From Smithellaceae bacterium (lineage in GTDB: Bacteria; Desulfobacterota; Syntrophia; Syntrophales; Smithellaceae), in the NCBI GenBank assembly GCA_035416785.1, contig DAOLNX010000001.1, positions 9,790 through 73,789 of the forward strand: a stretch of DNA of 64,000 bases, written 5' to 3'. The notes beneath the pieces were generated by a model. The model was not told where the DNA came from. It saw only the letters and a list, made by a program, of their open reading frames with translations, and searched no databases. Below, piece by piece: positions 14,707 to 38,331 of this stretch; position 1 is the stretch's first letter, and every line of letters begins with the position of its first letter. The position numbers and the translations under genes were made by a program.

Positions 14707-14728
14707 ATAATCGAGGAGATCGACGGGA

Positions 14729-15466: not shown

Positions 15467-15475
15467 GAATAAACC

Positions 15476-16773: not shown

Positions 16774-18245
16774 GAAAGCCTCTTGATGGAAAAAACATTA
16801 TGATCATCGGCGCGGGTGTCGGAGGCCTTTCTACGGGAATTTTGCTCAGGAATTTGGGATATCATGTCACCCTCGTGGAAAAGAATCAATTGCCGGGTGG
16901 ATTGATGCGTTCCTATATCCGTCGGGGGATCGACTGCCCAGTGGGTGTGCATTATGTTGGTGCGCTGGGACCGGACGAACCCCTCGGAAAAATGTTTCAC
17001 GTTTTGGGAATATCCGTTAAGGATTTGTTTTTTTCGATGGGCGAAGGCGGAGTGATTGATCGGTATCTCTTTGATGATTTTGTTTTTGATCTGCCGGTGG
17101 GCATTGATGCTTATGAAACTAATTTGAAAAAGACCTTTCCGGGTGAAGAGGATGCGCTGACTGCGCTGATGAAGAGCTTACGTGAAATTGCTGGAAGCAT
17201 GAAGGGATCCTCTTTTTTACTTCATCCGGCAGATCCCTTTCAAAATATGGATTATTTTCGCCCGATGGGCGAACTGCTCGATGAACTCCGGGTATCCGCC
17301 CGATTACGCGCTGTGCTGGCGGTGCCCTGCCAGCTCATTGGCGTGCCACTTTGCGATTGTCCGGTGATTTTTCATCACATGGTTACCTCTGTCTATTTAT
17401 TTTCCTCCTGGCGATTGAAAGAGGGAGGAAGCCGGATGGCGGATGCGTTTACCAAACGTTTTTCTGAAGAGGGCGGCCATCTGCTGGTAAATTCGGCGGT
17501 TCGGGAGATCTGTCTCCATGCGGGACAGGTTTCCGGAGTGATTCTGGAAACGGGAGAAAAAATTCCCGCCGACGCGGTGGTAGCGGCGATTCATCCGAAA
17601 ATTCTGTTGGGCCTTTTGCCCCAAAACGCTTTGCGCGCCAGCCTTCGTGAAAGAATTTTCACGCTTGAGGAAACGGATGGCGTGCTTGCCGTTCAGGCAA
17701 GCTTAGATGCCGATGTGCATGAGGAATTCTCTTATAATCTTTACCGTTTGCATTATGACAGCCGGGGAGAAATTGAAGACGGGGTATTTTACCAGATGCG
17801 CGAAACGGGTGATCCGTCCACCCGTCTTTTGTCAATAATTACCCGTTCTCCCTACAGGGACTGGAGTTCATGGGAACATACGGTTTCGGGAAAGCGAAGC
17901 ACGATGTATTACGAAAAAAAATTGCTGTCAGCCTATGATCTTTTAAAAAAGGCGGAAGCCATTTACGGTCCTTTGAAAAATTTTCGGATTCTGGATGTGT
18001 TCACGCCTCTGACGCTTCGCGATTATATGAATTGTCCCGAAGGATCCTGTTACGGTGTAAAACGATCTGCCCGACAACTTTTAAAAATAGCGTCCTTGAA
18101 TCATTTACCGATTGGTGGCTTGTATCTTGCCGGACAAAACGCACTGGCGCCGGGAGTGATGGGAGCCATGCTGTCATCGTTTTATGCCGTGAGGCAGATG
18201 ATTGGGGAGCAGCGATTTGCCGCGGAATTTGAACGGAAACTCTAA
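16770..18245 (+). CDS. FAD/NAD(P)-dependent oxidoreductase (phytoene-desaturase/amine-oxidase family)
   Basis: Dinucleotide fold IMIIGAGVGGLSTG...VTLVEKNQLPGG. 491 aa. Confidence 0.8.
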   Translation: MRKPLDGKNIMIIGAGVGGLSTGILLRNLGYHVTLVEKNQLPGGLMRSYIRRGIDCPVGVHYVGALGPDEPLGKMFHVLGISVKDLFFSMGEGGVIDRYLFDDFVFDLPVGIDAYETNLKKTFPGEEDALTALMKSLREIAGSMKGSSFLLHPADPFQNMDYFRPMGELLDELRVSARLRAVLAVPCQLIGVPLCDCPVIFHHMVTSVYLFSSWRLKEGGSRMADAFTKRFSEEGGHLLVNSAVREICLHAGQVSGVILETGEKIPADAVVAAIHPKILLGLLPQNALRASLRERIFTLEETDGVLAVQASLDADVHEEFSYNLYRLHYDSRGEIEDGVFYQMRETGDPSTRLLSIITRSPYRDWSSWEHTVSGKRSTMYYEKKLLSAYDLLKKAEAIYGPLKNFRILDVFTPLTLRDYMNCPEGSCYGVKRSARQLLKIASLNHLPIGGLYLAGQNALAPGVMGAMLSSFYAVRQMIGEQRFAAEFERKL

Positions 18246-18397
18246 TGCTGGACGGTTGTACGGATTTATGCTAATTGCCGCACACATGTTTCCTGCCTAT
18301 GGCAAAGGCCCATGGCAGTATATTCCTGAATGGGGAGAGGGGAATGAGGCGCTCCCGGATGCAAAACAGGGAAGGATTAAAGGAGTTGCAAAACTGA

Positions 18398-18670
18398 ATG
18401 ACTCGTCAGGATATTGAAAAAGAAGTCCGCAGGATTTTCCTTGTGGAATTTGAAGTTGATAATCCCGAGATGGATGTCAATCTACGGGAAGCCTATGGGT
18501 TTGACAGTATTGATGCCATTGAACTTTTGCTGGAAATTGAAAAATTTCTCAATTCCGAACTGACGCAGTCGGAGAAAAAAAAGGCGATGGATATTCGGAC
18601 GATGAGGCAAATTATTGACTATATTGAAATGCTGGCCGAGAAGCGCAAGGCCTTGCCGGAGAAAGAATAG
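18398..18670 (+). CDS. Acyl carrier protein
   Basis: 90 aa with the phosphopantetheine attachment motif GFDSIDAIEL. Confidence 0.85.
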   Translation: MTRQDIEKEVRRIFLVEFEVDNPEMDVNLREAYGFDSIDAIELLLEIEKFLNSELTQSEKKKAMDIRTMRQIIDYIEMLAEKRKALPEKE

Positions 18671-18673
18671 AGG

Positions 18674-19912
18674 ATGGAACGTAGGGTTGTCATCACGGCC
18701 TGTTCGGCCATTTCACCCATCGGGCACAGCAAAAGGGAAATTGTGGAAAGCCTGTGCAAAGGAATTTCAGGCGTAAAAACTTTGCCGGAAGATGAATTAA
18801 TCGGCCGCTTTATTCATTCTCGTGTTTATGGCACTGTCAACTACCCCATTGCCTATGATTTTAAGCGCCAGCACCGTAAAACCATGGGGCCGGTGGCCTA
18901 TTATGCCTGTCAGGTGGCCAAGGAGGTTTTACAGCAGGCGCAGCTTCCAGAGAGCTTTGTGACGGGAGGCAGGTTGGGTATTGCTTTCGGGTCGATTCAC
19001 GGGTCGCCCACCGTGCAGCGTGATATTTATAAGATTATCTTCGGTGCAAAAGACAAAGCGGCTTATCAGAATATCGGTGCGGTAGATTATCTGAAATCCA
19101 TGGTGCATACGACAGCGGTCAACATTTCCAAGATGTTCGGCATTACCGGCCGCATTATTTCTTCAGGAACCGCCTGCACTACGGCCAGCCAATCCATTGG
19201 TTACGGTTACGAAGCCGTCAAGTATGGTTTGCAGGATGCCATGCTTTGCGGCGGAGCGGATGAATACGACACTATTACCGTCGCGGTTTTTGATAATTTG
19301 CTGGCGTGTTCCACCTCGTTTAATGACCGGCCTGATCAAACCCCACGCCCATTTGACCAGGCTCGTGACGGGTTGGTGGTTGCTGAAGGCGCAGGCGCTG
19401 TTCTTTTGGAAGACTATGAATCTGCCAAGAAACGAGGTGCGCCCATTTTGGCGGAAGTCATCGGTTTTGCCTGCAATTCCAATGGAGGAGACCTGATCTT
19501 GCCCAATCTGGAGGGCATTACCAAAACCCTTCAACTGGGGCTGGAAAACGCCAAATTGAATGCCTCCGATGTTGATCTGATCAGCGCCCATGCCACAGCC
19601 ACAAAAATGGGAGACATTATTGAAGCCCAGGCCACAGGTTCCGTGTTTGGTTTGCATCCACAAGTCGTGGCCCTGAAAAGTTACATGGGACACACGATGG
19701 CGGCGTGCGGAGGCATAGAAACGGTTTTATGTCTTTACATGATGCAGGAAGGGTTTATTGCGCCGACGCTCCATCTTGAAAATGTTGATGAACGCTGTTC
19801 GATGATTCGTCATGTGCAAAATCTGCTCGAACAAAAATTTACAACTGTCGCTATTCAGAACTTTGCGTTTGGCGGTGTGAATACCAGCCTGCTGATTCGA
19901 AAGTTGACCTAA
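18674..19912 (+). CDS. Beta-ketoacyl-ACP synthase (KS)
   Basis: Active-site Cys in SSGTACTTAS. His motifs SAHATAT and MGHTMAACG. Confidence 0.9.
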   Translation: MERRVVITACSAISPIGHSKREIVESLCKGISGVKTLPEDELIGRFIHSRVYGTVNYPIAYDFKRQHRKTMGPVAYYACQVAKEVLQQAQLPESFVTGGRLGIAFGSIHGSPTVQRDIYKIIFGAKDKAAYQNIGAVDYLKSMVHTTAVNISKMFGITGRIISSGTACTTASQSIGYGYEAVKYGLQDAMLCGGADEYDTITVAVFDNLLACSTSFNDRPDQTPRPFDQARDGLVVAEGAGAVLLEDYESAKKRGAPILAEVIGFACNSNGGDLILPNLEGITKTLQLGLENAKLNASDVDLISAHATATKMGDIIEAQATGSVFGLHPQVVALKSYMGHTMAACGGIETVLCLYMMQEGFIAPTLHLENVDERCSMIRHVQNLLEQKFTTVAIQNFAFGGVNTSLLIRKLT

Positions 19913-19915
19913 AAA

Positions 19916-20707
19916 ATGCTTCCTGTTCATTTTCTCCGGCGTGCCGCGGATTTTGGTTTGACGCTGATTTTGTGGGTGTATTTTCTTTTTGGCTATCCGT
20001 TGCTTCTCCTGATTTTACTTTTTCCCCTGTCCCTTCGCTTAAAAAATGTCGCCGCTGTTATTCAGATGATGCTTCACCTCCATATGAAATATTTTTTTGC
20101 CCTGGTGTGCCTGCTTTTTCCCAAAACAAGCTTTCAAATTACCGAAAATGTTCGCTCCCTCCGCTCGTCCATCATTATCTGCAATCACCTTTCTTATTTA
20201 GACCCCATTTTGCTTGTCTCGCTTTTCCCCCGTCACACAACGATTGTGAAAAAAACTTTTTTCCGCGTCCCCATTTTTGGCTGGTTTTTAAAAAAAGCCG
20301 GTTATATTCCGTCGGCGCCCGCGGAAATGAGCGGTCCGGCCATGATTGACCATCTGGAAAGCATCAAGCGTCATCTGGCGGCGGGCGGCAATTTATTTGT
20401 TTTTCCGGAAGGAACGCGCAGCCGTCATGGTGAAATCAATCCTTTCAACAGGGGGGTATTCAGCATTGCGCGTTACTGCCGCAAGGGCTTGTCTCTGGTT
20501 TTGATCCAAAATACCGACAAGCTATTCCGTCCCGGAACTTTTTCTTTTGCGACGCAGGGAAAGCAGGCCATTACCATGGAACTGATCGGGGCGTTGGAAC
20601 CGGATTACCAGGCGAAAAATTTTTCTCTTTCCGCAGTGGTATCCCAGTCCCGGAAAATTTTTGAGCGGGAAATCGCCGCAAGAAAGCCGGGGCAAGAAAA
20701 ATCTTAA
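19916..20707 (+). CDS. Lysophospholipid (1-acyl-glycerol-3-phosphate type) acyltransferase, membrane-anchored
   Basis: HX4D motif NHLSYLD, the FPEGTRS motif, and N-terminal hydrophobic segments. Confidence 0.85.
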   Translation: MLPVHFLRRAADFGLTLILWVYFLFGYPLLLLILLFPLSLRLKNVAAVIQMMLHLHMKYFFALVCLLFPKTSFQITENVRSLRSSIIICNHLSYLDPILLVSLFPRHTTIVKKTFFRVPIFGWFLKKAGYIPSAPAEMSGPAMIDHLESIKRHLAAGGNLFVFPEGTRSRHGEINPFNRGVFSIARYCRKGLSLVLIQNTDKLFRPGTFSFATQGKQAITMELIGALEPDYQAKNFSLSAVVSQSRKIFEREIAARKPGQEKS

Positions 20708-20849
20708 TTTAAACAAGGCATTCGTCACATCCGGAGAGCTTTGCAAAACCGTCCAATAAATATGAGCTTCCTTCTTTCGAAAACGGGAAGGAAGGCAAGA
20801 TGTGGTTTGGCAAAGGTTTTGCGATGATTGGCACGGCTCGAATATTTAT

Positions 20850-20878
20850 TTGACTTTTTGATGTCTTAATTTTAAATT
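20850..20878 (+). promoter_or_regulatory. Candidate sigma-70 promoter for the second half of the cluster
   Basis: TTGACT, a 17-nt spacer, then TAAATT. It lies in the 207-bp gap upstream of the KS gene at 20915. Confidence 0.3.
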
Positions 20879-20914
20879 TTTTCGCCTATTTTTGAAAACA
20901 GGTTAAAAGAAAGC

Positions 20915-22162
20915 ATGCAGAAAAAACGGATTGTCATTACGGGCATGGGTACGGTAAATGCCATTGGTGGAAACGTCTCGCAATTTGCGGTTTCTTTGCA
21001 AAGCGGTGTCTGCGGCATAACGGATATCGATCTGTTCGACACGGCTGCCTATCGAACCCATAAGGGAGGCCAGATTAAGCATTTTGATCCCCGTCAGTCC
21101 ATTCCGGATACATTTTCAACGAAAAGAATGTCGCGCGCCGATCAACTGGTTTTCGCTGCGACTCTGGAAGCCCTGCGGGATGCCCGTCTCTACCCATTTC
21201 CCGAGCTGTTTCGGGAAAATACAGGTGTGGCCATCGGTGGAGGCGCTGGAGGGCTGTTTGAAGCGGAAGACTTTTATTCAGACCTGTTGAAAAAAGGAGC
21301 AAACCGGGCGAAATTTTCCCGTCTGTCTAGCGTCTATTGTGCGTCTTCCGCTGACCGGATAGCGTCCAATCTGGCTCTTGCCGGCCCGAAGGCTACATTT
21401 ATGACCGCTTGTTCTTCCGGGGCAACCGCTCTGGGATTCGCGAGAGATATCATTGCTTTTGGTCAGGCATCGATGATGGTGGCGGGAGGTGTGGAGCCCA
21501 TGTCCAGGATTACCTATTCAGCTTTCAATGCATTAAAGTCGGTTGACGAAGATGTTTGCCGGCCTTTCGACCGGAATCGTGCCGGCCTTTCCTTGGGGGA
21601 GGCAGCAGCCATTCTCGTTATGGAACCTTTGGAGTCGGCGCTTGACCGGGGAGCGAAAATTTACGGTGAAATTCTGGGATATGGTGTAACCTGCGATTCA
21701 TTTCATATGACCGCTCCGGATGAAAAGGCTTCCGGCGCAGTCCGCTGTATGCAGGCCGCGCTCAAGGACAGCGGACTCACCATCGCAGATATTGATTATA
21801 TCAACGCTCATGGAACCGCCACGCTGGCCAATGACATTACGGAAACCAGGGCTATTAAAGAAGTCTTTGGAAGCCGTGCCTATTCCATCCCGGTGAGCTC
21901 TACAAAATCCATGCACGCTCATCCTCTGGATGCGGCAGGAGCGCTGGAGGCCATTGTCTGCCTGCTCGCTCTGTCGCAGGGGTTTATTCCGCCGACCATC
22001 CATTTGAAGGAGCGGGATCCGGATTGTGACCTGGATTATGTTGCGGAGGGTGCGCGTCAGCGAGAACTGCGCACAGTTCTGTCCAATTCTTTTGCTTTTG
22101 GCGGAAACAATACTACGGTAATTTTTGGGAAATATGAAGGCAGGGGTGCGGTTCATGGATGA
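20915..22162 (+). CDS. Beta-ketoacyl-ACP synthase (KS-alpha of a KS/CLF pair)
   Basis: Active-site Cys in MTACSSGATALG. His motifs NAHGTAT and SMHAHPLDAAG. Confidence 0.9.
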   Translation: MQKKRIVITGMGTVNAIGGNVSQFAVSLQSGVCGITDIDLFDTAAYRTHKGGQIKHFDPRQSIPDTFSTKRMSRADQLVFAATLEALRDARLYPFPELFRENTGVAIGGGAGGLFEAEDFYSDLLKKGANRAKFSRLSSVYCASSADRIASNLALAGPKATFMTACSSGATALGFARDIIAFGQASMMVAGGVEPMSRITYSAFNALKSVDEDVCRPFDRNRAGLSLGEAAAILVMEPLESALDRGAKIYGEILGYGVTCDSFHMTAPDEKASGAVRCMQAALKDSGLTIADIDYINAHGTATLANDITETRAIKEVFGSRAYSIPVSSTKSMHAHPLDAAGALEAIVCLLALSQGFIPPTIHLKERDPDCDLDYVAEGARQRELRTVLSNSFAFGGNNTTVIFGKYEGRGAVHG

Positions 22163-23414
22163 AAAACGGGACGTGCCGATGAAAGAGCGTATTGTTGTGA
22201 CCGGACTCGGGCTTGTCACGCCATTGGGTGTGGGAAAAGATGAATTTTACCAAAGGCTTTTATCAGGTGACGGCGGTATTTCCGGACTGGAGGCGTTTAA
22301 TGCCGACAATGTCGCATCGCATCTGGGCGCGGAAGTCCGAAACTTCAGACCGCGGGATTTTATTTCAACCAAAAATCTGCGAAGGATGGATAAAATATCG
22401 TCTCTGGCGACTGCCGCGGCACGCATGGCGCTGGAGGATGCGGGTATTGTGGTCGGAAGAGAAAACCGTGACCGAGTTGGCATTCTTCTGGGAACGGCTT
22501 TTGGAGCGACGGACGTGACGGTACAGGTGGCCGGCACACTGCTTTCCCAGGGGCCGTCATCGGTCAACCCGATTCTTGTCCCCAATACTGTAATGAATGC
22601 ACCGGCGGCCCACGCATCCATCGAGTTGGGGTTCCGCGGTGTCAATACCACAGTGACCCAATATGCAGTTTCTGCTGAAACAGCCATCGCTTATGCCCTC
22701 TCGGAAATAAAACGAGGTATAGCGGACGTGCTTTTGACCGGTGGAGTGGATATTTTGTCAAAATTTTACTATGAAGCCCTATCCAGGTTTCGAGGTCTTT
22801 CGCCGGACGATGGCGGACGGGAAGGTGCCCGTCCCTTTGATCAAGAGCGAAACGGCTACGTGGCTGGGGAAGGATGCGGCATTCTGTGCCTGGAATCTCT
22901 GGCGTCGGCAAGAGAAAGAGGCGCAAATATCTATTGTGAGATCAGCGGCGCGGGCCTCTGCTCATCTGCCGAGACGCCGACCGGCTGGCCGGAGGATTCC
23001 CAAGGGGTCCGGCAGGCCTTGAGACGGGTTTTGCAACAAGCTGGCATCTCGATAACGGATGTCACGGCAATCATGGCGGCGGCCAATGGAGGGCGCCTCC
23101 TGGATCTGGCGGAGGCGCGGGCGTATGAGGAAGCTTTTGCTTCTTGTGAACAAAAACCGTTTGTTACCTCTATCAAGGGGGCAATCGGTGAAAGTTTTTC
23201 CGGCGGCGGCATACGGGCTTGTTCCCTGGCTTTATCGGTCCAAAACAAATGTCTGCCTCCAACGGTCGGGCTTTCCGATCCGTTGATGCCTTTGAACTTC
23301 GTCATGGAAAAGAAAAAGGAAGTCGTGATCAAAAACGCGGTTCTTGCCGGTGTTTCTTTCGGTGGAACCTATGCTTACTTGGTTTTCAGCGCCTGCGGCG
23401 ACATGAGAGGATAG
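22155..23414 (+). CDS. KS-like chain-length-factor type subunit (no active-site Cys)
   Basis: KS fold, but the Cys position reads TQYAVSAET and the His motifs are absent (AAANGG). The ORF is open from 22125, and starts at 22155 or 22179 are both possible. It overlaps the upstream KS stop. Confidence 0.8.
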   Translation: MDEKRDVPMKERIVVTGLGLVTPLGVGKDEFYQRLLSGDGGISGLEAFNADNVASHLGAEVRNFRPRDFISTKNLRRMDKISSLATAAARMALEDAGIVVGRENRDRVGILLGTAFGATDVTVQVAGTLLSQGPSSVNPILVPNTVMNAPAAHASIELGFRGVNTTVTQYAVSAETAIAYALSEIKRGIADVLLTGGVDILSKFYYEALSRFRGLSPDDGGREGARPFDQERNGYVAGEGCGILCLESLASARERGANIYCEISGAGLCSSAETPTGWPEDSQGVRQALRRVLQQAGISITDVTAIMAAANGGRLLDLAEARAYEEAFASCEQKPFVTSIKGAIGESFSGGGIRACSLALSVQNKCLPPTVGLSDPLMPLNFVMEKKKEVVIKNAVLAGVSFGGTYAYLVFSACGDMRG

Positions 23415-23536: not shown

Positions 23537-24766
23537 ATGAAATTTTTATTAATTTACCCAAAGTGGGAAAAACTGGACCGCCAGACGCGCTTTACACTGC
23601 CGCCGCATGGACCGGTGGTGATGGCTGCCGCGCTGCCCGCTGACGTGGAAGTGACGTTTGTTGACGAAAATGTCGAACCGGTCGACTTGAATGCAACTGC
23701 CGATCTGGTGGGGATTTCCATGATGTTGACTGCGCAGGTCCGGCGGGGTTGGGAAATTGCCGACGCCTTCCGTGTCAGGGGCATTAAGGTGATTTGCGGG
23801 GGGATTGCCACCATGCTGCATGCCGAGGAATCTGGTCGACATGCGGATTCCGTATTTTTAGGGGAAGCGGAAGGCCGCATGGAACAGGTTTTTGATGACG
23901 TTAAATTCAACCGCCTGCAACCCGTCTATGACTATATGCAGAAATTTCCGCCCATTGAAAGTGTCGGAACGGCAAGACGGAGCATTTTAAACCGTGCCAT
24001 GTACAATTACCGGGGTGTGCAGATGGTGGATTTGGTGCACGCGTCACGGGGTTGCCGGTTCAACTGTTATCCGTGCGCCGTGAGATTTTTAGGCGGCCGG
24101 AGCTTTCGTCCCCGACCCTTTGAACGGGTTGTTGAAGAACTGGCGTCGATTGACAATAACCGCTTGTTTATCGTGGATAATTCGCTGGCCCAGGATAAAG
24201 ATTGGGAAATGGGATTGTTCAAGGAAATGATTCCGCTGAAAAAGAAATGGTGCAGCCATCCGATTGAAGATGACGATCAGGTGCTGGATTTGGCAGCGCA
24301 GGCCGGCGCCTGGTTTGTCTATCAGGCGATTTTTGATTCTTCCGATTTTATTCGCGACCGCGTCAAGCGCTACCACGACCATGGCATTGCGGTGGAAGGC
24401 AGCATTTTGTTGGGGCTGGATTATCATACGGAGGATTATATCAAGCGCTGGATGGATTTTCTCCTGGAAATTGAACTGGATATGGCGGAATTTACCATTC
24501 TTACACCTTTCCCGCACACACGCACCTTTGATGATTTGCACGGTGCGGGGCGCATTTTTTCCTATGATTGGAATAACTACACATGCGGCAGCGTGGTATT
24601 TCGGCCGAAAATGATGACGCCTGAAAAACTGCAGGAAATGTATTACTACTGTTGGGATCGGTTTTATGAAGAAGAACCGCAAAACTACAAAATGTTTAAA
24701 ATGCTGAAAAATGTGATGGAAAAGGAAAAACGAGACGGAACCTATAAGCCACGAGTGCGTTCGTAG
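23537..24766 (+). CDS. B12-binding-domain radical SAM protein
   Basis: N-terminal B12-type region (PPHGPVVMAAALP...VGISMM) and radical SAM motif SRGCRFNCYPC. 409 aa. Confidence 0.85.
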   Translation: MKFLLIYPKWEKLDRQTRFTLPPHGPVVMAAALPADVEVTFVDENVEPVDLNATADLVGISMMLTAQVRRGWEIADAFRVRGIKVICGGIATMLHAEESGRHADSVFLGEAEGRMEQVFDDVKFNRLQPVYDYMQKFPPIESVGTARRSILNRAMYNYRGVQMVDLVHASRGCRFNCYPCAVRFLGGRSFRPRPFERVVEELASIDNNRLFIVDNSLAQDKDWEMGLFKEMIPLKKKWCSHPIEDDDQVLDLAAQAGAWFVYQAIFDSSDFIRDRVKRYHDHGIAVEGSILLGLDYHTEDYIKRWMDFLLEIELDMAEFTILTPFPHTRTFDDLHGAGRIFSYDWNNYTCGSVVFRPKMMTPEKLQEMYYYCWDRFYEEEPQNYKMFKMLKNVMEKEKRDGTYKPRVRS

Positions 24767-25640: not shown

Positions 25641-25669
25641 GCGTGCACATGGTTTTATCATGTGCACGC
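25641..25669 (+). terminator. Hairpin downstream of the cNMP-binding gene
   Basis: Perfect 11-bp stem GCGTGCACATG / CATGTGCACGC with a 7-nt loop. No clear T-run follows. Confidence 0.4.
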
Positions 25670-26364: not shown

Positions 26365-27912
26365 ATGAAAAAAATGGGCAAAAAGAACGCTCTGGTGATT
26401 GATGGAGGTCATGTCAGTTTTGCGGAAATGATTGCCGTGGCCAAAGATGGATTGCCGGTGGCCATCAGTGCATCACCCGCTTTTCTGAAACGGATGGCCA
26501 AAACGGAAAAAGCCCTGCAAGATGCGTTGCAAAAGGGGGTTGCCGTTTATGGCGTGAATACGGGTTATGGAAAATCCTGCGGGAACCGGATTGATTTGAA
26601 AACGGCTGAAAAAAACGGTGTCAATATTTTCCGTTTTCATGGGTGCGGCACAGGAGATCCAATTGGCATTGAGGAAACCCGGGCAGCGATGCTGACGCGC
26701 ATTATTTGTCTGGCCAGAGGGTATTCCGGCGTATCGGTTGCTCTGCTCAGGCAGATGGCGGATTTCTTAAACGTTGGTATCACTCCGGTTGTGCCTTGCG
26801 AAGGTTCTGTTGGCGCGTCCGGCGATCTGACACCGATGGCTTACATTGGGGGAGTGCTCAAGGGCGATGGCGATGTCTTTTATGATGACGATGTGATGCC
26901 TGCGGCCAGGGCGATAAAAAAGGCGGGATTGAAACCCTATACATACCGGCCCAAAGAACCGCTTTCCATGGTGAACGGCACCACTGTTATGACGGGAATT
27001 GCAGCGCTGGTTGTGGAGCGCGCGGAAAGGATTCTGGACGCGGCCATTTATGCAACGGCGCTCAGTGTTCACGCCATGAAAGGAAACGCCCATCACTATC
27101 ATCCGGTCATTTCGGAGGCCAAGCCTTTTCCCGGGCAAGCCCATGTCTCCAAAAAGATTGCCCATCTTTTACTTTCGCGCGTCAGCGTCCGCCAATTGGA
27201 AGATGACGCGCTGGAAACGCTGCAGGATCCTTATTCACTGCGTTGCGCGCCGCAGGCGCTGGGGGTCTTGCATGACGCATTGATCTGGATTAAAAAATGG
27301 GTGGAAATGGAAGCCAATTCATCCAACGACAATCCGATCTTTGACCCCGCCACGGGGGAAGTACTCATGGGCGGCAATTTTTACGGTGGCCATATTGCTT
27401 TTGCCATGGACGGACTGAAAGCGGCAGTGGCTTCGGCGGCGGATTTGTGCGATCGCCAGGTGATGCTTTTGGTGAATCCCAATTTAAATCGAGGGCTTCC
27501 GGGAGATTTGGTTTTTCAAAACAACGAGCAGGACGAACTTCATCATGGTTTTAAAGCCATGTCCATTGCGGCTTCGGCCCTGACTGCAGAAGCTTTGAAA
27601 GCGACTATGCCTGCCGCGTCTTTTTCGCGTTCTACAGAATCCCATAACCAGGATAAAGTCAGTATGGGCACCATCGCGGCACGCGATGCGGAGCGGGTCT
27701 GCACGCTTGCGGAACGGGTGGCGGCCATCCATTTGCTGGCGGCGGCGCAGGCCTGCGACCTTCGGAAAAATATCTCGGCGCGGCCGCTGCTGGCGAAAGC
27801 GCTGGGCAATATCCGGCAAGTCAGTGATTCCGTAACCAAAGATCGGCCGCTGGATGAGGACATTGAAAGAATGTGTGTTGTCATTCGCTACACGGATTTT
27901 TTTCGAGGATAA
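26365..27912 (+). CDS. MIO-dependent aromatic amino acid/histidine ammonia-lyase (HAL/TAL/PAL family)
   Basis: MIO-forming GSVGASGDLTPMAY and YGVNTGYG. 515 aa with an AAGGAGA ribosome-binding site. Substrate specificity cannot be assigned from the sequence alone. Confidence 0.9.
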   Translation: MKKMGKKNALVIDGGHVSFAEMIAVAKDGLPVAISASPAFLKRMAKTEKALQDALQKGVAVYGVNTGYGKSCGNRIDLKTAEKNGVNIFRFHGCGTGDPIGIEETRAAMLTRIICLARGYSGVSVALLRQMADFLNVGITPVVPCEGSVGASGDLTPMAYIGGVLKGDGDVFYDDDVMPAARAIKKAGLKPYTYRPKEPLSMVNGTTVMTGIAALVVERAERILDAAIYATALSVHAMKGNAHHYHPVISEAKPFPGQAHVSKKIAHLLLSRVSVRQLEDDALETLQDPYSLRCAPQALGVLHDALIWIKKWVEMEANSSNDNPIFDPATGEVLMGGNFYGGHIAFAMDGLKAAVASAADLCDRQVMLLVNPNLNRGLPGDLVFQNNEQDELHHGFKAMSIAASALTAEALKATMPAASFSRSTESHNQDKVSMGTIAARDAERVCTLAERVAAIHLLAAAQACDLRKNISARPLLAKALGNIRQVSDSVTKDRPLDEDIERMCVVIRYTDFFRG

Positions 27913-27914: not shown

Positions 27915-28337
27915 ATGAAGGATGAAAAGAAGAGTTTCGAAGTGAAAATCAGCGTGCCTTTTTTTGATCTGGACCCGATGCAGATTGTCTGGCACGGTAA
28001 TTACCTCAACTACTTTGAGCTGGCGCGGGCGGCTCTTTTTGATCACTATGGCGTTGATCTCTACGCTTACTATGAACGGGAAAAAATCATTTTTCCCATC
28101 ATCCGTACCTCCACCAAGCATATTTTTCCGTTGAGACATCGCGATGAGATTATCTGCAAAGCCGTTTTGGCCGATGCTAACATCAAATTGGTAGTGGATT
28201 TTGAAATCCGTAAGGTGGCCGACAATAGTGTTTGCGCGCGCGGACGTACGGAGCAGGTGGCAGTCAAAACTCCGGAGATGGAAACCCTGTTCAGTCTTCC
28301 TCAGGATATTCGCAATCTCTTGGGGAATGGGGAATAG
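27915..28337 (+). CDS. 4HBT/YbgC-type hotdog thioesterase
   Basis: VPFFDLDPMQIVWHGNYLNYFELAR is typical of acyl-CoA/ACP thioesterases. The ORF is open from 27873, and ATG 27915 follows the lyase stop. Confidence 0.8.
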   Translation: MKDEKKSFEVKISVPFFDLDPMQIVWHGNYLNYFELARAALFDHYGVDLYAYYEREKIIFPIIRTSTKHIFPLRHRDEIICKAVLADANIKLVVDFEIRKVADNSVCARGRTEQVAVKTPEMETLFSLPQDIRNLLGNGE

Positions 28338-28370
28338 GCGATAGGCGATAGGCAATGGGCGATGGGTTAC
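28322..28370. repeat. Heptamer array R3
   Basis: GGGGAAT GGGGAAT AGGCGAT AGGCGAT AGGCAAT GGGCGAT GGGTTAC. It overlaps the last codons and the TAG stop of the thioesterase gene. Confidence 0.65.
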
Positions 28371-28401: not shown

Positions 28402-30108
28402 ATGGATGAACCATTAAGAAAATCGTTTGTGGCCGGTGTGGAGCGTGTGTCTGCCTGGGCGGATTTGCTCGACGCCATTAATGTTTATCCCATTGCGGAT
28501 GGCGATACGGGAAGAAACCTTTCCATCAGTCTTTCTCCTCTCCGGTTTGCCGGAAAGAACAGGAATCAGCTTGTTCGTCAACTTCTTATGGCGGCCCGGG
28601 GGAACTCCGGAAATATTGCAACGCAGTTTTTTGCAGTGCTTTGCGGCCTGGATTCTCTGCATTCCCTAAAAGGCGCCGTTCAGGAAGGAAACATCCGTGC
28701 CTGGAAAGCGGTCAACGAGCCACGTCGGGGAACCATGCTTTCCGTTTTTGATGCGCTTGAGCATAGTTTAGCCAGGTACGAGTTTTTTCCTGATAGCAAA
28801 AGCGCGGCCCGAATCCTTCATTTTCTTGAAGAGGCGGTGCGCCAAACCCAAAATGAGTTGCCGAAATTAAAGCAAGCCGGTGTGGTAGACGCCGGCGCCC
28901 TGGGCATGTACATTTTTTTTGAGGCGTTTTTATATACACTGGCAGGGTGTGGCCATTCCTGTCGGCCGGTGACGGAGGTCTTCAAGAACAGTCTATCCAT
29001 TGTCTCCTCTTTTCAGGAAACGGCAGAAACAGGCTATTGTATTGATTTTGTTATCAAAACGGCTGCAGTGCCGGAAGAACTGGCCGAAATTGCCGGAAGG
29101 CGGGACAGCGCCGTGATGATTCACGAGGGTGACCTGTATAAAATTCATGTGCATACCGACAATAAAGAGGAGATGAAGGCGCAAATCAGCAAGTTGGGTG
29201 ATGTGTTGCGCTGGGAGGACGATGATCTTTCTAAACAAGTCCGGGATTTCCAGGTTGCCCTCCCGAAATCCCCTCTGCATATTATGACGGATGCCGCCGG
29301 GTCTCTAACACGTGATGACGCCAAGAGATACGGATTCACTCTTTTGAACAGTTACCTGAATGTCGGGGAAAAATCTTTGCCGGAAACCTGCTTCCACCCT
29401 GATGAATTATACATCGCCATGCGCAACGGTGTAAAGGTTTCCACGTCCCAGGTGTCCGTTTATGAAAGGCATCAGTCTTATGCAGGCGCTCTGGCTCAGT
29501 TTGAAAATGTTTTGTATTTATGCGTAGGGTCCGTCTATACGGGGAATTATCAGGCGGCGACAGACTGGAAGAAAGAACATGATGCTCAAAATCATTTCAA
29601 GATCATCGATACGGGAGCGGCTTCCGGCCGACTGGGCACCATTGTTTTGTCCACTGTCCAATACCTTGCCAGGACCGGGGATATGGACAAAACCATCGCT
29701 TTTGCGAAAAGCGCATCAGCCAGATGCGAAGAGTATTTGTTTTTAGAAAAACTGGAATATCTCGCCGCAAGTGGACGACTGTCCAAACCCAATGCTTTTT
29801 TCGGCGATTTGTTGAAGATGAAACCCGTGATTTCGCCACGGCCGGAGGGGGCGAAAAAAGTGGGCATGACGCGCAATCCAAGCGAACAAATCGACATGGC
29901 ACTGGAAAAACTATCGGCTTCGCTTGCTCGGGAGTCTGAAGCCATTATTATGCTGGAATATTCCGACAACCTTGGCCAGATCAAGACCGTGCAGGAAATC
30001 CTGAAGGAACGCTATCCGTTAGCGGACATCATTCTGCAGCCTTTGTCATTAACATCGGGCGCGCATATGGGACCGGGGACGTGGGGAGTGGCGTTTATGA
30101 AAATGTAG
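28402..30108 (+). CDS. Dak2(DhaL)-domain / DegV-domain fusion protein (fatty-acid-kinase-like)
   Basis: The N-terminal half has DGDTGRN and ARGNSGN (DhaL/Dak2 nucleotide-binding motifs). The C-terminal half has DegV motifs (TSQVS, TGNYQAA, IIDTGAASGRLG, LEYLAASGRLSKPNAFFGDLLKMKPV). Confidence 0.8.
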   Translation: MDEPLRKSFVAGVERVSAWADLLDAINVYPIADGDTGRNLSISLSPLRFAGKNRNQLVRQLLMAARGNSGNIATQFFAVLCGLDSLHSLKGAVQEGNIRAWKAVNEPRRGTMLSVFDALEHSLARYEFFPDSKSAARILHFLEEAVRQTQNELPKLKQAGVVDAGALGMYIFFEAFLYTLAGCGHSCRPVTEVFKNSLSIVSSFQETAETGYCIDFVIKTAAVPEELAEIAGRRDSAVMIHEGDLYKIHVHTDNKEEMKAQISKLGDVLRWEDDDLSKQVRDFQVALPKSPLHIMTDAAGSLTRDDAKRYGFTLLNSYLNVGEKSLPETCFHPDELYIAMRNGVKVSTSQVSVYERHQSYAGALAQFENVLYLCVGSVYTGNYQAATDWKKEHDAQNHFKIIDTGAASGRLGTIVLSTVQYLARTGDMDKTIAFAKSASARCEEYLFLEKLEYLAASGRLSKPNAFFGDLLKMKPVISPRPEGAKKVGMTRNPSEQIDMALEKLSASLARESEAIIMLEYSDNLGQIKTVQEILKERYPLADIILQPLSLTSGAHMGPGTWGVAFMKM

Positions 30109-30175
30109 ATGGGCAATGGGCAATAGGTGGTATCGAACGCCTCAACATCCGGAGCCATAGGCGATCATTGGAGGA
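30109..30175. repeat. Heptamer array R4 (short, degenerate)
   Basis: GGGCAAT GGGCAAT AGGTGGT lies immediately after the TAG stop at 30106-30108. A further CATAGGCGATCATTGGAGG lies at 30165-30175. Confidence 0.4.
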
Positions 30176-30178: not shown

Positions 30179-30895
30179 ATGGAAAACTCTCAAAACCGTT
30201 TTGCCTTTGTCATTCCGGTTTATAATCATGGCGGGACGGTTTCGATGGTTGTGCGGCAAGCGCAAGCTTTGGGTTATCCCGTTTTTGTGGTGGATGACGG
30301 TTCCACCGACGAAACCCCCTTGCGGTTGGCGGAAATTCAGGGAATTCATCTTTTGAGGCATGCTCAAAACACAGGCAAGGGTGCGGCAATTCTGACCGGT
30401 TTTGCCGCTGTATCTCATGTTGCTGATTTTGCGATTACGATTGATGCCGATGGTCAACATTATCCGGAAGATGCGTTGAAGCTGATTGCCGCCATTCCGG
30501 AAAACAAACGTCCTTTGATTGTTGGAGCGCGGCAGGGGATGGATGCGGTTTCGGGCGCTCATATTCCGTGGACCAGCCGATTCGGAAGGAAGTTTTCCAA
30601 TTTCTGGGTCCGGATGTCGGGCGGGCCGATTCTCTCCGATTCTCAAAGCGGCATGAGAATTTATCCTTTGCCGGAATCTCTGAATCTTGATGTTCAAGCA
30701 CGGCGTTTCCAGTTTGAGGTGGAGGTTCTGGTAAAAGCGAAAAGAAGAGGAATCTCTGTGGTTGAGGTGCCCGTTCGAGTCGTTTATCAAGTTGGCGCAG
30801 CCAGAATTTCCCATTTTCATCCGTTTGTGGATTTTTGGAGAAACGCTAAAACATTTACCCGCCTGATTTTGACCCGGTCGGTTTTACATGATTGA
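30179..30895 (+). CDS. Family 2 glycosyltransferase
   Basis: FVIPVYNHGGTV...VFVVDDGSTDET and the DADGQH motif. Confidence 0.85.
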   Translation: MENSQNRFAFVIPVYNHGGTVSMVVRQAQALGYPVFVVDDGSTDETPLRLAEIQGIHLLRHAQNTGKGAAILTGFAAVSHVADFAITIDADGQHYPEDALKLIAAIPENKRPLIVGARQGMDAVSGAHIPWTSRFGRKFSNFWVRMSGGPILSDSQSGMRIYPLPESLNLDVQARRFQFEVEVLVKAKRRGISVVEVPVRVVYQVGAARISHFHPFVDFWRNAKTFTRLILTRSVLHD

Positions 30896-32673: not shown

Positions 32674-32687
32674 TGCCTCTCTCGCAT

Positions 32688-35013: not shown

Positions 35014-35253
35014 TTTACACCCAAAAAGATGTATGGATTAAAGTTGCCGTATCTGCACAACATAAAAAACTTGTTCGTCCGAAACAATTGAGCACTTCTT
35101 TAGAATATTTTTCAGAAAAACGCCAGAGCATTCAAACCCATTTTTTCTTTCTGTCTGTCAATGCGTTTTCAAGCTTTTTCTTGCACCGGCTGAGAAAATA
35201 TGTTTGTAAATCAGCGTGTAATTAATAATTTTATTGTTATTATATGGATTTAC

Positions 35254-38200
35254 ATGCCACAACAGTCGTATCACATCCGATGGTCCATTGTTTTTTTTAC
35301 CGCTGTTATCGTCGGGCTGCTTTTCTTTTGGGAAACTACCCATTTAAAAATTGAAACGGACATTCTGGAATCCATGCCGCATTCCGATCCGGTTTTAAAT
35401 GACGCTCGTCAGGTGATCACACATTTACCTGTTCAGGACCGGGTATTTCTTGATTTGGAACAGGCTGTTCCCGATCGCGACAAGTTGGCTGGGGCGGCCG
35501 GCTTTGTTACCAGGAAGTTGAAAGAAAGCGGCTTGTTTTCTAAGGTTGGAGTTGGTGATGAAGCCAGTCATTTTCCGGAGCTGATCGCTCATGTCCACAA
35601 CCATCTGCCATCCCTTTTGAGTCAATCTGATCTGGAACAAAGAATCCAGCCGCTTCTGCAACCGGAAAAAATTCGACAGGTGATGATGCAAAACCGGCAA
35701 AGTTTAGAGCAGCTTGAGGGAATTGGTCGGGCGGAGATGATGGCCAAGGATCCTCTGGGTTTTTCCGGTTTGATTCTGGAGCGGTTATCTGTTCTGCTTC
35801 CATCTGGCGGTGTTCAATATCATCAGGGGCAGCTGCTTTCCGCCGATGGCCGGCACGCGTTGATAATTGCGCGCATCAAAGGGTCGGGGACAGATTCGGT
35901 TCGCGCTGCTCAAATTGAAAAACTTCTTGCGGATTGCAGGAAAGAACTGGCACTTTATGATCATAGCCCAAATCAGTATCTTTTGTCTTCTGTTGGATCT
36001 TATCGGGCGGCATTGGACAATGAAACCATTGCCAGACGCGACACGCGTCTGGCAATCATATTGACAACGCTCGTGATCGGTCTGCTGCTCATCCTGGCGT
36101 TTCCCCGTCCGCTTATCGGCCTTTTGGCTCTTCTGCCCTCGTCTGTGGGTGCGATTGCGGCCTTGTTCGTCTGTTCCTGGCTGTTTCCATCTATGTCTTT
36201 ACTGGCAGTAGGTTTTGGTGGCGCCATTATGGCATTTACCGTTGATCTTGGACTAACGTATCTGCTGTTTTTGGACAGGTCTTACGCCACTTTAGGGAAA
36301 CAGGCGGCGCGGGAGGTCTGGTTGGCGGAATTAACGGCAGTGATGACAACGGTAGGTGCGTTTCTGACGCTTTTGATCAGCGATTTTCGCATTATGGCCC
36401 AGATTGGCGTATTTGCCGCCTTGGGCGTGACTTTTACTTTTACCTTTGTCCATTTTGTTTTTCCGAAAATTTTTCCGGCCATGCCACCGGCAAGGTCCCG
36501 CACCAACCGTTTTCTGCAAAGTGTGGTGGAAAAATTTGCGGCGCCAGCAAAGTGGAAACTGGCTGGAGCCTTCGGTTTTGCCTTGGTCATGTTGATCTTT
36601 GCCAAGCCGGTGTTCCATGTTGATCTCCAGGCGATGAATTCCGTGAGTCCTGAAACGCTTAAAGCGGAAAAAAAAATACAAGAGATCTGGGGAAATCTGT
36701 CCGGTAAATGCTATGTTCTGCTCGAAGCTCCAACCATCGAGAATCTGAGGCAAAAGGACGAACGATTGTCGGCTTTTCTGGCAGAGGCCATGAATCAGGA
36801 GAAGATTAAAAGCGCTATGCTGCCGTCGGTGCTTTTTCCATCGGATGAGGCGGCGCGCCGCAATTTTGCAGCCTGGCAAACATTCTGGACGCCCGGACGT
36901 CTTGGCGCGCTCGAAAATGCTTTGCATGATGCCGCAGGAGAAAATGGTTTTGCCGTTGATGCGTTTGATTCTTTTTGGAAAATGATGACCTCCTCCGGAC
37001 CGGTTTCCTCTCCAATACCGAAAACTTATTTTGATATGTTGGGCATTGCAAAAACGGCAGATGGATTTGCGCAAGTGACTCTGGTATCCGTTGGTTCTCA
37101 TTACAACGCCGAGGAGTTCTTTTCATTTCTTCATCAAAACAGCCTGGCCAGATTGTTTGATGCCGGTTTATTCAGCAGGCAGCTGGGGAATTTACTCAAA
37201 AGCCTGTTCATCAAAATTGCCCTGATGGTTACGATTGGCATTATTGCACTCATTTTTCTTTTCTTTTTGGATTGGCGTTTGTCTCTAGCTGTGCTTTTAC
37301 CAAGCGCCTTTGCGCTTTGCGCCACAATGGGTACGCTGCGAATGATCGGTCATCCGCTGGATATTCCCGGTATTATGCTCTGGATTGTCATTTTGGGCAT
37401 GGGAATCGACTATGCCTTGTATTATGTATGTTCTTATCAGCGACATCCCGATGAGAACTCTCCGACAATCAAGACCATTCAATTGTCCATTTTTCTGTCT
37501 GCCGCCACAACGTTCATCGGTTTTGGCGTGCTGGCCCTGGCTGAGCATTCGCTATTGCGAAGCATTGGTCTTGTGTCTCTTGCCGGTATTGGTTACTCCC
37601 TGATCGGCGTATATTTTATCCTGCCCACACTGATGCAGAAGATCTTTGCGCCCTATCCGTTTCCGGAAAGCGACGTTTTAGCCGGTTCCCAAGAGCATTT
37701 GCGGCGGACGGTGTTACGATACCGGCATTTGCCCGGATATCACAGAGTATTTGCACGTTTGAAAATTCTAATGGATCCGATGTTTCGGGAGCTGCACCAA
37801 TATGTAAAGAATCCCCGAAGGATTATCGACATTGGTTGTGGCTACGGCGTTCCTTCGACATGGCTTCTGGAAATTTATCCGCAGGCCAAAGTTTTCGGTC
37901 TGGAACCGGATGAGGAAAGAGTGCTGATCGCCAATCGCGTTATCGGCACGCGAGGATATGTGGAAACAGGTGCCGCGCCCAATCTTCCTTTCGTGGAAGG
38001 TCGGGTTGATTACGCACTGATGCTGGATATGCTACATTTTTTAACTGCGGAGGAAATGCGTCTGGTGTTCGATCGGATTTACCGGAAATTGGATGAAGGC
38101 GGCACGCTGCTGATCCGTACGACGATTCCTTCAGAGATCAAAGTGCCTTGGAAACGATGGCTTGAAGTGGTGCGGCTGAAAATGACAGGCATACGGGAGC

Positions 38201-38331
38201 ATTTCCATCAGGAAAATGAGATCACGGGCTTAATGACGGCTGCCGGATTTTCTGCTGTCGTTCATCCTTCTTGCCGCTCGGGTGTGGAAGAAAAGTGGTT
38301 TGTGGGGAAAAAGGTGCAGGTTGAAAACTGA
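35254..38331 (+). CDS. MMPL/RND-superfamily exporter fused to a C-terminal class I SAM methyltransferase
   Basis: Two blocks of multiple hydrophobic helices separated by large loops (MMPL architecture). The last ~230 aa carry motif I IIDIGCGYG and DEGGTLLIRT. The ORF is open from 35200. Confidence 0.85.
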   Translation: MPQQSYHIRWSIVFFTAVIVGLLFFWETTHLKIETDILESMPHSDPVLNDARQVITHLPVQDRVFLDLEQAVPDRDKLAGAAGFVTRKLKESGLFSKVGVGDEASHFPELIAHVHNHLPSLLSQSDLEQRIQPLLQPEKIRQVMMQNRQSLEQLEGIGRAEMMAKDPLGFSGLILERLSVLLPSGGVQYHQGQLLSADGRHALIIARIKGSGTDSVRAAQIEKLLADCRKELALYDHSPNQYLLSSVGSYRAALDNETIARRDTRLAIILTTLVIGLLLILAFPRPLIGLLALLPSSVGAIAALFVCSWLFPSMSLLAVGFGGAIMAFTVDLGLTYLLFLDRSYATLGKQAAREVWLAELTAVMTTVGAFLTLLISDFRIMAQIGVFAALGVTFTFTFVHFVFPKIFPAMPPARSRTNRFLQSVVEKFAAPAKWKLAGAFGFALVMLIFAKPVFHVDLQAMNSVSPETLKAEKKIQEIWGNLSGKCYVLLEAPTIENLRQKDERLSAFLAEAMNQEKIKSAMLPSVLFPSDEAARRNFAAWQTFWTPGRLGALENALHDAAGENGFAVDAFDSFWKMMTSSGPVSSPIPKTYFDMLGIAKTADGFAQVTLVSVGSHYNAEEFFSFLHQNSLARLFDAGLFSRQLGNLLKSLFIKIALMVTIGIIALIFLFFLDWRLSLAVLLPSAFALCATMGTLRMIGHPLDIPGIMLWIVILGMGIDYALYYVCSYQRHPDENSPTIKTIQLSIFLSAATTFIGFGVLALAEHSLLRSIGLVSLAGIGYSLIGVYFILPTLMQKIFAPYPFPESDVLAGSQEHLRRTVLRYRHLPGYHRVFARLKILMDPMFRELHQYVKNPRRIIDIGCGYGVPSTWLLEIYPQAKVFGLEPDEERVLIANRVIGTRGYVETGAAPNLPFVEGRVDYALMLDMLHFLTAEEMRLVFDRIYRKLDEGGTLLIRTTIPSEIKVPWKRWLEVVRLKMTGIREHFHQENEITGLMTAAGFSAVVHPSCRSGVEEKWFVGKKVQVEN

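Follow-up and report, generated by a model that had tools for sequence, protein, structure and literature searches.

A Dak2-DegV fusion resembling a single-chain fatty acid kinase in aryl polyene-like lipid gene clusters

Why would a gene cluster for an aryl polyene (APE)-like pigment in a Gram-negative anaerobe contain what looks like both parts of a fatty acid kinase (Fak) in a single polypeptide? The question is raised by one gene in a 64,000-nucleotide stretch of a Smithellaceae genome (GenBank assembly GCA_035416785.1, contig DAOLNX010000001.1, positions 9,790 to 73,789; hereafter the window), which encodes a Dak2-type kinase half joined to a DegV-type lipid-binding half (hereafter the fusion). 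As far as its domains and conserved residues can tell, the fusion combines in one polypeptide a bacterial fatty acid kinase that normally consists of two proteins. Its recurrence in clusters of the same kind in lineages of sulfate reducers and syntrophs, across several phyla, suggests an unrecognized acyl-phosphate step in the making of APE-like pigment-lipids.

Domains, fold and active-site residues of the fusion

The fusion gene starts with ATG and encodes 568 amino acids (Table 1). The first-pass annotation of this locus had described a protein of two parts, an N-terminal DhaL/Dak2 half with the motifs DGDTGRN (residues 33-39) and ARGNSGN (residues 65-71) and a complete C-terminal DegV domain. 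Both halves are supported by Pfam, with the Dak2 match (PF02734) at 55 bits against a cutoff of 27 (E 1.1e-14) and the DegV match (PF02645) at 144.1 bits against 27 (E 7e-42), the latter spanning profile positions 2-279 of 280. With 152.9 bits for TIGR00762 (NCBIfam cutoff 99.7), the C-terminal half is by its profile matches a bona fide DegV-family member. The two-part description overlooked a third domain, FakA-like_M (PF21645, 34.3 bits against 24.9, E 2e-8), which contains the catalytic Cys/His/His set. The NCBIfam models for YloV/FakA align to the fusion only over model positions 2-299 of 530 and 13-313 of 549, indicating that it has the N-terminal and middle domains of FakA without FakA_C.

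Searches of solved structures by sequence gave the same division, with S. aureus FakA_N matching residues 9-182 (E 1e-20), the alignment to S. suis FakA running through residue 279, and fatty-acid-loaded DegV structures matching residues 291-566 (E 1e-16). Alignments of the DegV half to 2dt8, 1pzx, and FakB1 were also obtained. Structure prediction, which the first-pass annotation had recommended, pointed to the same folds. An AlphaFold2 (AF2) model built on 30 homologues (mean predicted local distance difference test score, pLDDT, 77.8; predicted template modelling score, pTM, 0.68) was compared with the PDB using Foldseek and matched the full-length FakA structure of S. suis (7w7h_A, E 1e-21). 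Over the C-terminal half, template modelling (TM) scores to FakB/DegV structures were 0.74-0.82 (FakB1/FakB2, 0.74-0.80; fatty-acid-loaded DegV/FakB, 0.77-0.82), and the N-terminal domain matched FakA_N at a TM of about 0.75.

An assembly error or frameshift that joined two genes can be dismissed as the origin of the fusion, since the 120 best-matching homologues in the database (60-99% identity, 555-584 aa) share its length and architecture. All three Pfam domains were found in 118 of these; P0096 and P0116 are without a record for the middle domain. A look-up of the exact sequence of the window protein gave no entry.

With the two-protein FakA/FakB systems of S. aureus and S. suis (PDB 7w7h, 7rm7, 6w6b, 5uto) the fusion shares the Dak2-type ATP/Mg domain, the Cys/His/His middle domain, and a DegV fold with a Thr, Ser (or Thr), His, and Arg carboxylate site. 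Presumably it also shares the chemistry, predicted for the fusion as ATP + R-COOH -> R-CO-OPO3. It differs in being one chain, with a real DegV domain where FakA has the FakB-docking EDD domain FakA_C, and in belonging to Gram-negative anaerobes and to a specialised-lipid cluster instead of phospholipid salvage. The function of FakA_C is to bind FakB, and FakA without this domain (FakA_NL) remains an active kinase, although its Michaelis constant for FakB rises from 0.09 to 0.99 uM, about 11-fold worse (PMC9136124). A tethered DegV domain in the place of FakA_C is therefore mechanistically sensible. Dihydroxyacetone kinase (DhaK/DhaL) follows a similar logic, in which a Dak2 (DhaL) nucleotide domain works with an EDD-fold substrate domain (PMC10848957; PMC9136124). 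However, the substrate domain of the fusion is a DegV domain with a carboxylate site, not one with the hemiaminal-forming His of DhaK, and no Dak1/DhaK domain was matched in the fusion by Pfam at E<=0.1, so it is not a DhaK/DhaL kinase.

To look for conserved catalytic positions, we used an alignment (A1) of 23 full-length fusions, the most divergent of which has 22% identity to the window protein. The ADP-(Mg2+)2 ligands of S. aureus FakA are N32, D38, D40, T41, N82, and D185 (PMC9136124). Alignment to 8vip/7rm7 places N27, D33, D35, T36, N68, and D163 of the fusion at these positions, and all six are invariant or nearly so in A1. Residues C213, H249, and H251 are invariant, and in S. suis FakA the motifs "GYC" and "HVHT" align with them. 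According to PMC9136124, mutants of their S. aureus equivalents (C240, H282, H284) are about 100-fold or more less active, the loss for C240A exceeding two orders of magnitude. The predicted carboxylate-binding set of the DegV domain is T348, T380, R459, and H555, the counterparts of T61, S93, R170, and H264 in S. suis FakB2, where Thr, Ser, and His form a hydrogen-bond network and a conserved Arg stands at the tunnel mouth (PMC10848957). The 32-residue spacing of T348 and T380 equals that of T61 and S93, and the other two spacings agree within two residues. T348, R459, and H555 are invariant in A1. The S93 counterpart is Thr (T380) in the clade of the window protein, and only within that clade is it invariant or nearly so; part of a more distant clade of fusions has a DegV-like Ser at this position. 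The invariant columns coincide with residues shown to be important in two-component FakA/FakB.

Alternatively, the fusion might be a non-catalytic lipid-binding, chaperone, or regulatory protein, with the DegV domain handing a lipid to LolA-like or MMPL export proteins and the Dak2 domain acting as a nucleotide sensor. The DegV family includes many uncharacterised lipid-binding proteins, Fak also acts in regulation in S. aureus, and export genes are among the neighbours of the fusion. However, the Mg ligands, the Cys/His/His set, and the FakB arginine are invariant across very divergent fusions, which argues for selection for catalysis, and we consider this the remotest of the explanations weighed here. 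The first-pass annotation had proposed a self-contained carboxylate kinase. The part of that proposal concerning domains and residues stands, in that the fusion has, as predicted from sequence, all that such a fatty acid kinase needs; the kinase activity itself we infer.

Two clades of fusions and their gene neighbourhoods

The architecture itself has been described before. A 2021 preprint (bioRxiv 10.1101/2021.02.16.431466) cites Erni et al. 2006 for Dak2-DegV fusions and places such fusions near heliorhodopsin genes in Chloroflexi and Firmicutes. A HMMER search of 1.84 billion representative sequences recovered at least 256 clusters at the 50% identity level with E<=1e-30, in two tiers of matches, one full-length at 35-47% identity and a second at 24-34%. 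In public records they go simply by the name "DegV family (EDD domain) protein". What appears to be new here is the genomic context of one clade. Our literature search for Fak or DegV proteins in connection with aryl polyene, flexirubin, xanthomonadin, or ladderane clusters found no linking paper, in agreement with the first-pass annotation, which knew of no such step in APE pathways. FakAB has been reviewed as a Gram-positive strategy, with Gram-negative bacteria using acyl-CoA/acyl carrier protein (ACP) synthetases (PMC10146087). A Fak clade that is a constant part of gene clusters in Gram-negative anaerobes does not fit this textbook view.

To examine the context of the fusions, a GTDB set with one genome per species was scanned with A1, and 80 loci were kept with up to 10 kb of flank on each side. 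Neighbours were identified by tblastn with the proteins of the window cluster (query coverage >=40%, E<=1e-5). The loci split cleanly into 38 encoding proteins with 37-68% identity to the window protein and 42 with 23-29%. All are on contigs of metagenome-assembled genomes (MAGs), so that taxon labels may be imperfect. By these labels, the nearer clade belongs to Smithella/Syntrophaceae (Syntrophales), Desulfobacteraceae (Desulfobacterales), Desulfobulbus/Desulfocapsa/Desulfopila (Desulfobulbales), SAR324, one myxobacterium (a Polyangiaceae MAG), a Spirochaetota MAG, and one bin labelled as an archaeon. The distant clade includes Gemmatimonadota, Gammaproteobacteria, Thermotogota, Spirochaetota, Zixibacteria, Caldithrix, and others.

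Genes of an APE-like cluster lie beside the fusion in 36 of the 38 loci of the nearer clade, and the remaining two lie on contigs of about 2-3 kb that have no flanking sequence. The genes mostly run in the order thioesterase, fusion, glycosyltransferase family 2 (GT2), and MMPL-methyltransferase. Among the 39 loci listed, a thioesterase gene immediately precedes the fusion in 25, often abutting the start codon of the fusion, and a GT2 gene immediately follows it in 26, commonly with the MMPL-methyltransferase coming after. Variants of this order include an AMP-binding ligase upstream in Desulfobulbus (L029, by Pfam) and a similar gene in two other Desulfobulbales-type loci (L028 and L042, by tblastn), an LpxL-like acyltransferase upstream in L021, and an LPLAT-family acyltransferase directly downstream in L026, L034, and L035. 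These variants keep the fusion among late-stage lipid enzymes. An ammonia-lyase gene accompanies the fusion only in some lineages (absent from L013, L022, L023, L029, L030, L031, L037, and L039). The clade of the window protein is thus shown to be a fixed component of APE-like polyene-lipid clusters.

The same neighbourhood was found by tblastn in none of the 42 distant loci. These proteins, which represent the Dak2-DegV fusions noted earlier, have the identical three domains, align over their full length, and keep the same invariant residues, but at 23-29% identity to the window protein they never occur beside APE-like genes. The linkage to the cluster is therefore clade-specific and not a property of the architecture. 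Co-occurrence, which the first-pass annotation had named as a check, holds within the window clade and fails for the architecture in general.

We clustered the neighbour genes of the distant clade to reveal recurring families. Most of these are housekeeping genes, including those for ribosomal protein L9, RsfS, and type II secretion proteins. In 8 of the 42 loci (L055, L057, L059, L063, L069, L070, L077, and L083) a plsY gene (PF02660, E 3e-41) directly follows the fusion in the same orientation, within a few tens of bases. These loci are from Spirochaetota, Caldithrix, Thermotogota, Cytophagia, and Neomarinimicrobiota. PlsY acylates glycerol-3-phosphate from acyl-phosphate. The known consumers of acyl-phosphate are PlsY and PlsX (PMC9136124). 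The pairing suggests that in the distant clade the fusion and PlsY make up a two-gene fatty acid salvage module, and it gives independent genomic support for acyl-phosphate formation by single-chain Dak2-DegV proteins.

The distant clade also bears on whether the window fusion could be a housekeeping Fak, salvaging free fatty acids into phospholipid via PlsY/PlsX and lying beside the cluster by chance. Its same-architecture relatives sit in housekeeping contexts (ribosomal protein L9, RsfS, PlsY), all general Fak residues are kept in the window protein, and PlsX and PlsY are near-universal among bacteria. However, synteny with the thioesterase, GT2, MMPL-methyltransferase, and B12-binding/radical-SAM (B12-rSAM) genes persists across Syntrophales, Desulfobacterales, Desulfobulbales, SAR324, Myxococcota, and a spirochaete, and survives extensive rearrangement of the cluster and divergence of the protein to 37-68% identity. 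Synteny conserved across phyla in spite of rearrangement is not expected of a bystander gene, making this explanation unlikely.

PlsY-type genes also occur inside APE-like clusters that contain the fusion. Paralogues (PF02660, E 1e-32 to 1e-36) are present in five of these (L024, L032, L035, L038, and L087). The one scanned with NCBIfam, from L024, scored 108.6 bits, under the PlsY equivalog cutoff of 137.2. In L087 the order is LolA-like, unknown, fusion, GT2, MMPL-methyltransferase, LpxL-like, LPLAT, PlsY paralogue, AMP-binding ligase, B12-rSAM, and ApeI-like dehydratase. A reciprocal look from the PlsY paralogue family found the fusion in one of three contexts examined (L087), which is partial support.

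A candidate acyl-phosphate step in APE-like lipid assembly

Taken as a whole, the explanation we favour, with slightly more confidence than doubt, is that the fusion is a dedicated carboxylate kinase that re-activates a free acid as acyl-phosphate for assembly of the lipid anchor. As gene order suggests, the 4HBT-type thioesterase would free the acid from ACP. The DegV domain would capture the freed acid, and the Dak2 and middle domains would, by homology, phosphorylate it to the acyl-phosphate, the covalent tether standing in for the docking function of FakA_C. Less certainly, and again from gene order, a PlsY-type enzyme may transfer the acyl group to glycerol-3-phosphate, giving 1-acyl-glycerol-3-phosphate; this enzyme is encoded in the cluster in some relatives and would be the housekeeping PlsY in the organism of the window. 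The cluster LPLAT and the lipid-phosphate-type GT2 could then build a glycerol-phosphate-sugar anchor as in Xenorhabdus APE lipids.

The only full APE lipid structure, that from Xenorhabdus, is consistent with such an anchor. Its backbone is glycerol-phosphate-N-acetylgalactosamine (GalNAc); the glycerol bears two acyl chains, one saturated and the other conjugated (C26:5), and the sugar bears the aryl polyene as an ester. Assembly of this lipid has been assigned to ApeD (LPLAT) and ApeJ (GT2-type). A more specific version of the favoured explanation is that a polyenoic or aryl-polyene acid, cut from its carrier by the thioesterase, is converted by the single-chain kinase to polyenoyl phosphate and passed to glycerol-3-phosphate via a PlsY-type enzyme, or possibly to a sugar head group. 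We regard this version as tentative and less likely than not.

The first-pass annotation had named the neighbouring LPLAT or GT2 as a possible consumer of the acyl-phosphate. Direct use by one of these enzymes of, for example, polyenoyl phosphate, or its use in O-acylation of the sugar head group, would fit the frequent position of GT2, and in three loci of LPLAT, immediately downstream of the fusion. Further, ApeJ of Xenorhabdus has been proposed as both the glycosyl- and the acyl-transferase that joins APE to GalNAc, and the window is without a PlsY paralogue. However, no PlsC/LPLAT-family or GT2 enzyme is known to use an acyl-phosphate donor, the Xenorhabdus model uses ACP-bound APE, and the recurring genes beside the fusions are of PlsY type. 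Use by LPLAT or GT2 is therefore improbable, though less so for sugar O-acylation, and PlsY-type acceptors fit better and are the more likely consumers.

Several findings weigh against the favoured explanation of a dedicated kinase. The fusion falls far under the NCBIfam equivalog cutoffs for FakA (NF038248, 94.2 against 975 bits) and FakB1 (NF038249, 60.9 against 350 bits), and its AF2 model is only moderately confident, with pLDDT below 50 at residues 455-489, around R459. A literature search for the biochemistry of any single-chain Fak found no study. A PlsY paralogue lies within 10 kb in only the five fusion-bearing clusters named above, no PlsY-like gene was found in the 64 kb of the window, and in spirochaete loci L085 and L086 the paralogue belongs to a different lipid cluster (ketosynthase [KS], 4HBT, PS-DH, and acyltransferase [AT]) without the fusion. 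The APE clusters of E. coli and Xenorhabdus work without any Fak. The role of the ApeK thioesterase in APE clusters is unsettled between release and proofreading, and E. coli ApeK has been proposed to be a proofreader. Finally, the substrate could be either a polyenoic or aryl-polyene acid or an ordinary or partner fatty acid.

While Fak has been treated as a two-protein salvage system of Gram-positive bacteria, a one-chain form is conserved in the widespread and chemically uncharacterised APE-like clusters of anaerobic Desulfobacterota and allies, where a single-chain Fak clade appears to have been recruited to a specialised lipid pathway. If this is correct, acyl-phosphate would join acyl-ACP, acyl-CoA, and acyl-AMP as an activated intermediate of specialised lipid assembly, and the conserved thioesterase would gain a clear role in releasing the acid before re-activation. 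Should the substrate be the polyene acid, polyenoyl phosphate would be the first case of an acyl-phosphate on which a step of specialised (non-housekeeping) lipid or pigment biosynthesis depends, and a Fak enzyme would for the first time have a biochemical role in Gram-negative bacteria. The fusion is also a compact candidate enzyme for in vitro acyl-phosphate synthesis and a natural experiment on why FakA has a degenerate DegV-like C-terminal domain. Even if the model fails, the annotation "DegV family protein" can be refined to "single-chain Fak-type kinase, APE-cluster clade", apart from the PlsY-linked housekeeping clade.

Gene content of the window cluster

In the window the fusion is embedded, as judged by gene content, in an APE-like type II polyketide synthase (PKS)/lipid cluster, in keeping with the pigment cluster described by the first-pass annotation. 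The names of homologues point to an uncultured Smithella/Syntrophaceae-like bacterium as its host. The core comprises KS, chain-length factor (CLF), ACP, ketoreductase (KR; FabG), dehydratase (DH; FabZ-like), and an RND/MMPL transporter, together with LPLAT, GT2, thioesterase, and LolA-like genes (Table 1). With the APE clusters of E. coli CFT073 and Xenorhabdus doucetiae (apeA-R) it shares KS/CLF, ACP, KR, DH, LPLAT (ApeD), GT2 (ApeJ), the 4HBT thioesterase (ApeK), the LolA-like protein (ApeL), the RND/MMPL transporter (ApeM), and a methyltransferase. Unlike the window cluster, the canonical clusters are without a Dak2/DegV gene, a B12-rSAM gene, and an ammonia-lyase, and their starter is 4-hydroxybenzoate, activated via ApeH. 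The transporter and methyltransferase, separate there (ApeM, ApeB), are fused in the window, and the ApeH-like ligase has been lost.

Table 1 Features of the fusion, of the surrounding cluster, and of PlsY paralogues in related loci (positions in the window unless a locus is given)
Feature	Position	Strand	Evidence or remarks
Single-chain Fak, Dak2(FakA_N)-FakA_M-DegV fusion (predicted)	28402..30108	+	ORF (open reading frame), Pfam, NCBIfam, PDB matches, AF2/Foldseek, homologues
Dak2/FakA_N ATP-Mg binding domain	28489..28932	+	aa 30-177; Pfam PF02734; alignment to S. aureus FakA_N 8vip/7rm7
FakA middle (FakA_L/M) domain	29029..29244	+	aa 210-281; Pfam PF21645; C213, H249, H251
DegV/FakB-type fatty-acid-binding domain	29275..30102	+	aa 292-567; at FakA_C position; PF02645, TIGR00762
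Type II PKS/fatty acid synthase (FAS)-like core	14287..23414	+	Pfam/NCBIfam; same genes beside fusion in other lineages
FabZ-like DH	14287-14706	+	
FabG	14729-15466	+	
LolA-like protein	15476-16093	+	
Conserved unknown	16090-16773	+	
FAD oxidoreductase	16770-18245	+	
ACP	18398-18670	+	
KS	18674-19912	+	
LPLAT/PlsC-family acyltransferase (ApeD-like)	19916..20707	+	Pfam PF01553; NCBIfam AGP_acyltrn below cutoff
Second KS	20915-22162	+	
KS/CLF	22125-23414	+	
B12-binding/radical-SAM protein	23537..24766	+	Weak Pfam and NCBIfam matches; CX3CX2C motif, GCRFNCYPC
Aromatic amino acid ammonia-lyase (histidine/tyrosine ammonia-lyase, HAL/TAL, type)	26365..27912	+	Pfam Lyase_aromatic 1e-153
4HBT-type thioesterase (ApeK-like), directly upstream of fusion	27915..28337	+	Pfam 4HBT_2, 4HBT; YbgC/FadM-like NCBIfam below cutoffs
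GT2 glycosyltransferase (ApeJ-like), directly downstream of fusion	30179..30895	+	Pfam Glycos_transf_2
MMPL/RND transporter fused to SAM methyltransferase (ApeM-like + ApeB-like)	35200..38331	+	1043 aa; Pfam; NCBIfam HpnN-like
PlsY paralogue, L024 (SAR324)	17422-18012		PF02660
PlsY paralogue, L032	17515-18090		PF02660
PlsY paralogue, L035	2558-3127		PF02660
PlsY paralogue, L038 (Polyangiaceae)	1718-2296		PF02660
PlsY paralogue, L087	10001-10594		PF02660

Within this cluster, the start of the thioesterase gene was set at the ATG at 27915, which agrees with homologues of 138 aa; the mechanical ORF begins at GTG 27873. The closest named NCBIfam relatives of the GT2 are lipid-phosphate sugar transferases of the PpgS, AglJ, and ArnC types, all below cutoff. 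The most conserved protein of the cluster is B12-rSAM, with 59-85% identity across orders, compared with 37-68% for the fusion. It scores below every curated family cutoff, and its weak best matches include TIGR04072, "lipid biosynthesis B12-binding/radical SAM". The ammonia-lyase is likewise below all NCBIfam cutoffs, with 420 bits for hutH (cutoff 539), 412 for the BagA/FevW TAL model, and 310 for flexirubin FlxA. The scores for hutH and BagA/FevW TAL are about equal and do not single out one substrate for the enzyme or, with it, one aryl starter for the cluster.

No intact gene for an ApeH-like starter-activating acyl-ACP synthetase was found in the window cluster. In L001, L002, L005, and L007-L009 an AMP-binding ligase gene lies between those for CLF and B12-rSAM, in most of them together with an acyl-CoA dehydrogenase gene. 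The Smithella locus L006 is without both. At the same place in the window (23417-23544, between the end of KS/CLF at 23414 and the start of B12-rSAM at 23537) there is only a remnant of about the first 43 codons of the ligase, matched by tblastn in two short segments with 58% and 37% identity. An unrelated AMP-binding gene is present at 52440-53813. The window cluster may be deficient in starter activation or may rely on a ligase encoded elsewhere.

These losses are compatible with a further explanation, in which the fusion activates an aromatic starter acid (p-coumarate or similar, from the ammonia-lyase) and thereby replaces the lost acyl-ACP/CoA ligase. The window has lost both the ligase and the acyl-CoA dehydrogenase, leaving only the ligase remnant, the ammonia-lyase, thioesterase, and fusion genes are contiguous, and L006 is also without the ligase. 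However, ligase and fusion coexist in most relatives, and many fusion-bearing clusters are without any lyase. Further, DegV pockets are long acyl-chain tunnels whose solved structures hold C14-C18 acids, and the cluster encodes no route from an acyl-phosphate to its ACP. A p-coumarate kinase was accordingly down-weighted and is very unlikely, though not quite as remote as a non-catalytic role.

Downstream of the GT2 gene the window has a gene for a DnaJ-domain protein, followed by three regulatory genes on the opposite strand and then by the MMPL-methyltransferase gene. The regulatory block (31774-35013, minus strand) encodes a TPR protein, a HATPase_c protein, and a receiver-TPR response regulator, and it is conserved, being present in L001 and L002 as well. 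Genes for a PAS-LuxR regulator and a PilZ-domain protein come after the block and the MMPL-methyltransferase (39007-41117, plus strand). The MMPL-methyltransferase fusion, with its methyltransferase domain at the C terminus, is kept in related clusters.

The B12-rSAM and ammonia-lyase genes, which are adjacent in relatives, are separated in the window by an AT-richer insert of about 1.4 kb (24830-26256). Its edges form a 60-nt imperfect direct repeat (24830-24889 and 26197-26256, 77% identity). A small ORF in the insert (25143-25634, plus strand, 163 aa) encodes a cyclic-nucleotide-binding domain (Pfam E 3.6e-15), and a longer ORF on the minus strand (25071-25889) has no family match and looks spurious.

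Tandem repeats of the 7-nt unit GGCRATR occur on the plus strand in four spacers of the operon (24831-24867, 26212-26234, 28323-28366, and 30105-30127), where they directly follow or surround stop codons, among them the stop codons of the thioesterase and fusion genes. The two-unit pattern has 13 matches, compared with 0.44 expected, and occurs nowhere else in the 64 kb. A search for the arrays in all 87 related loci gave no match, so they are lineage-specific and unrelated to the conservation of the fusion. They could be an RNA-level element or a lineage-specific repeat.

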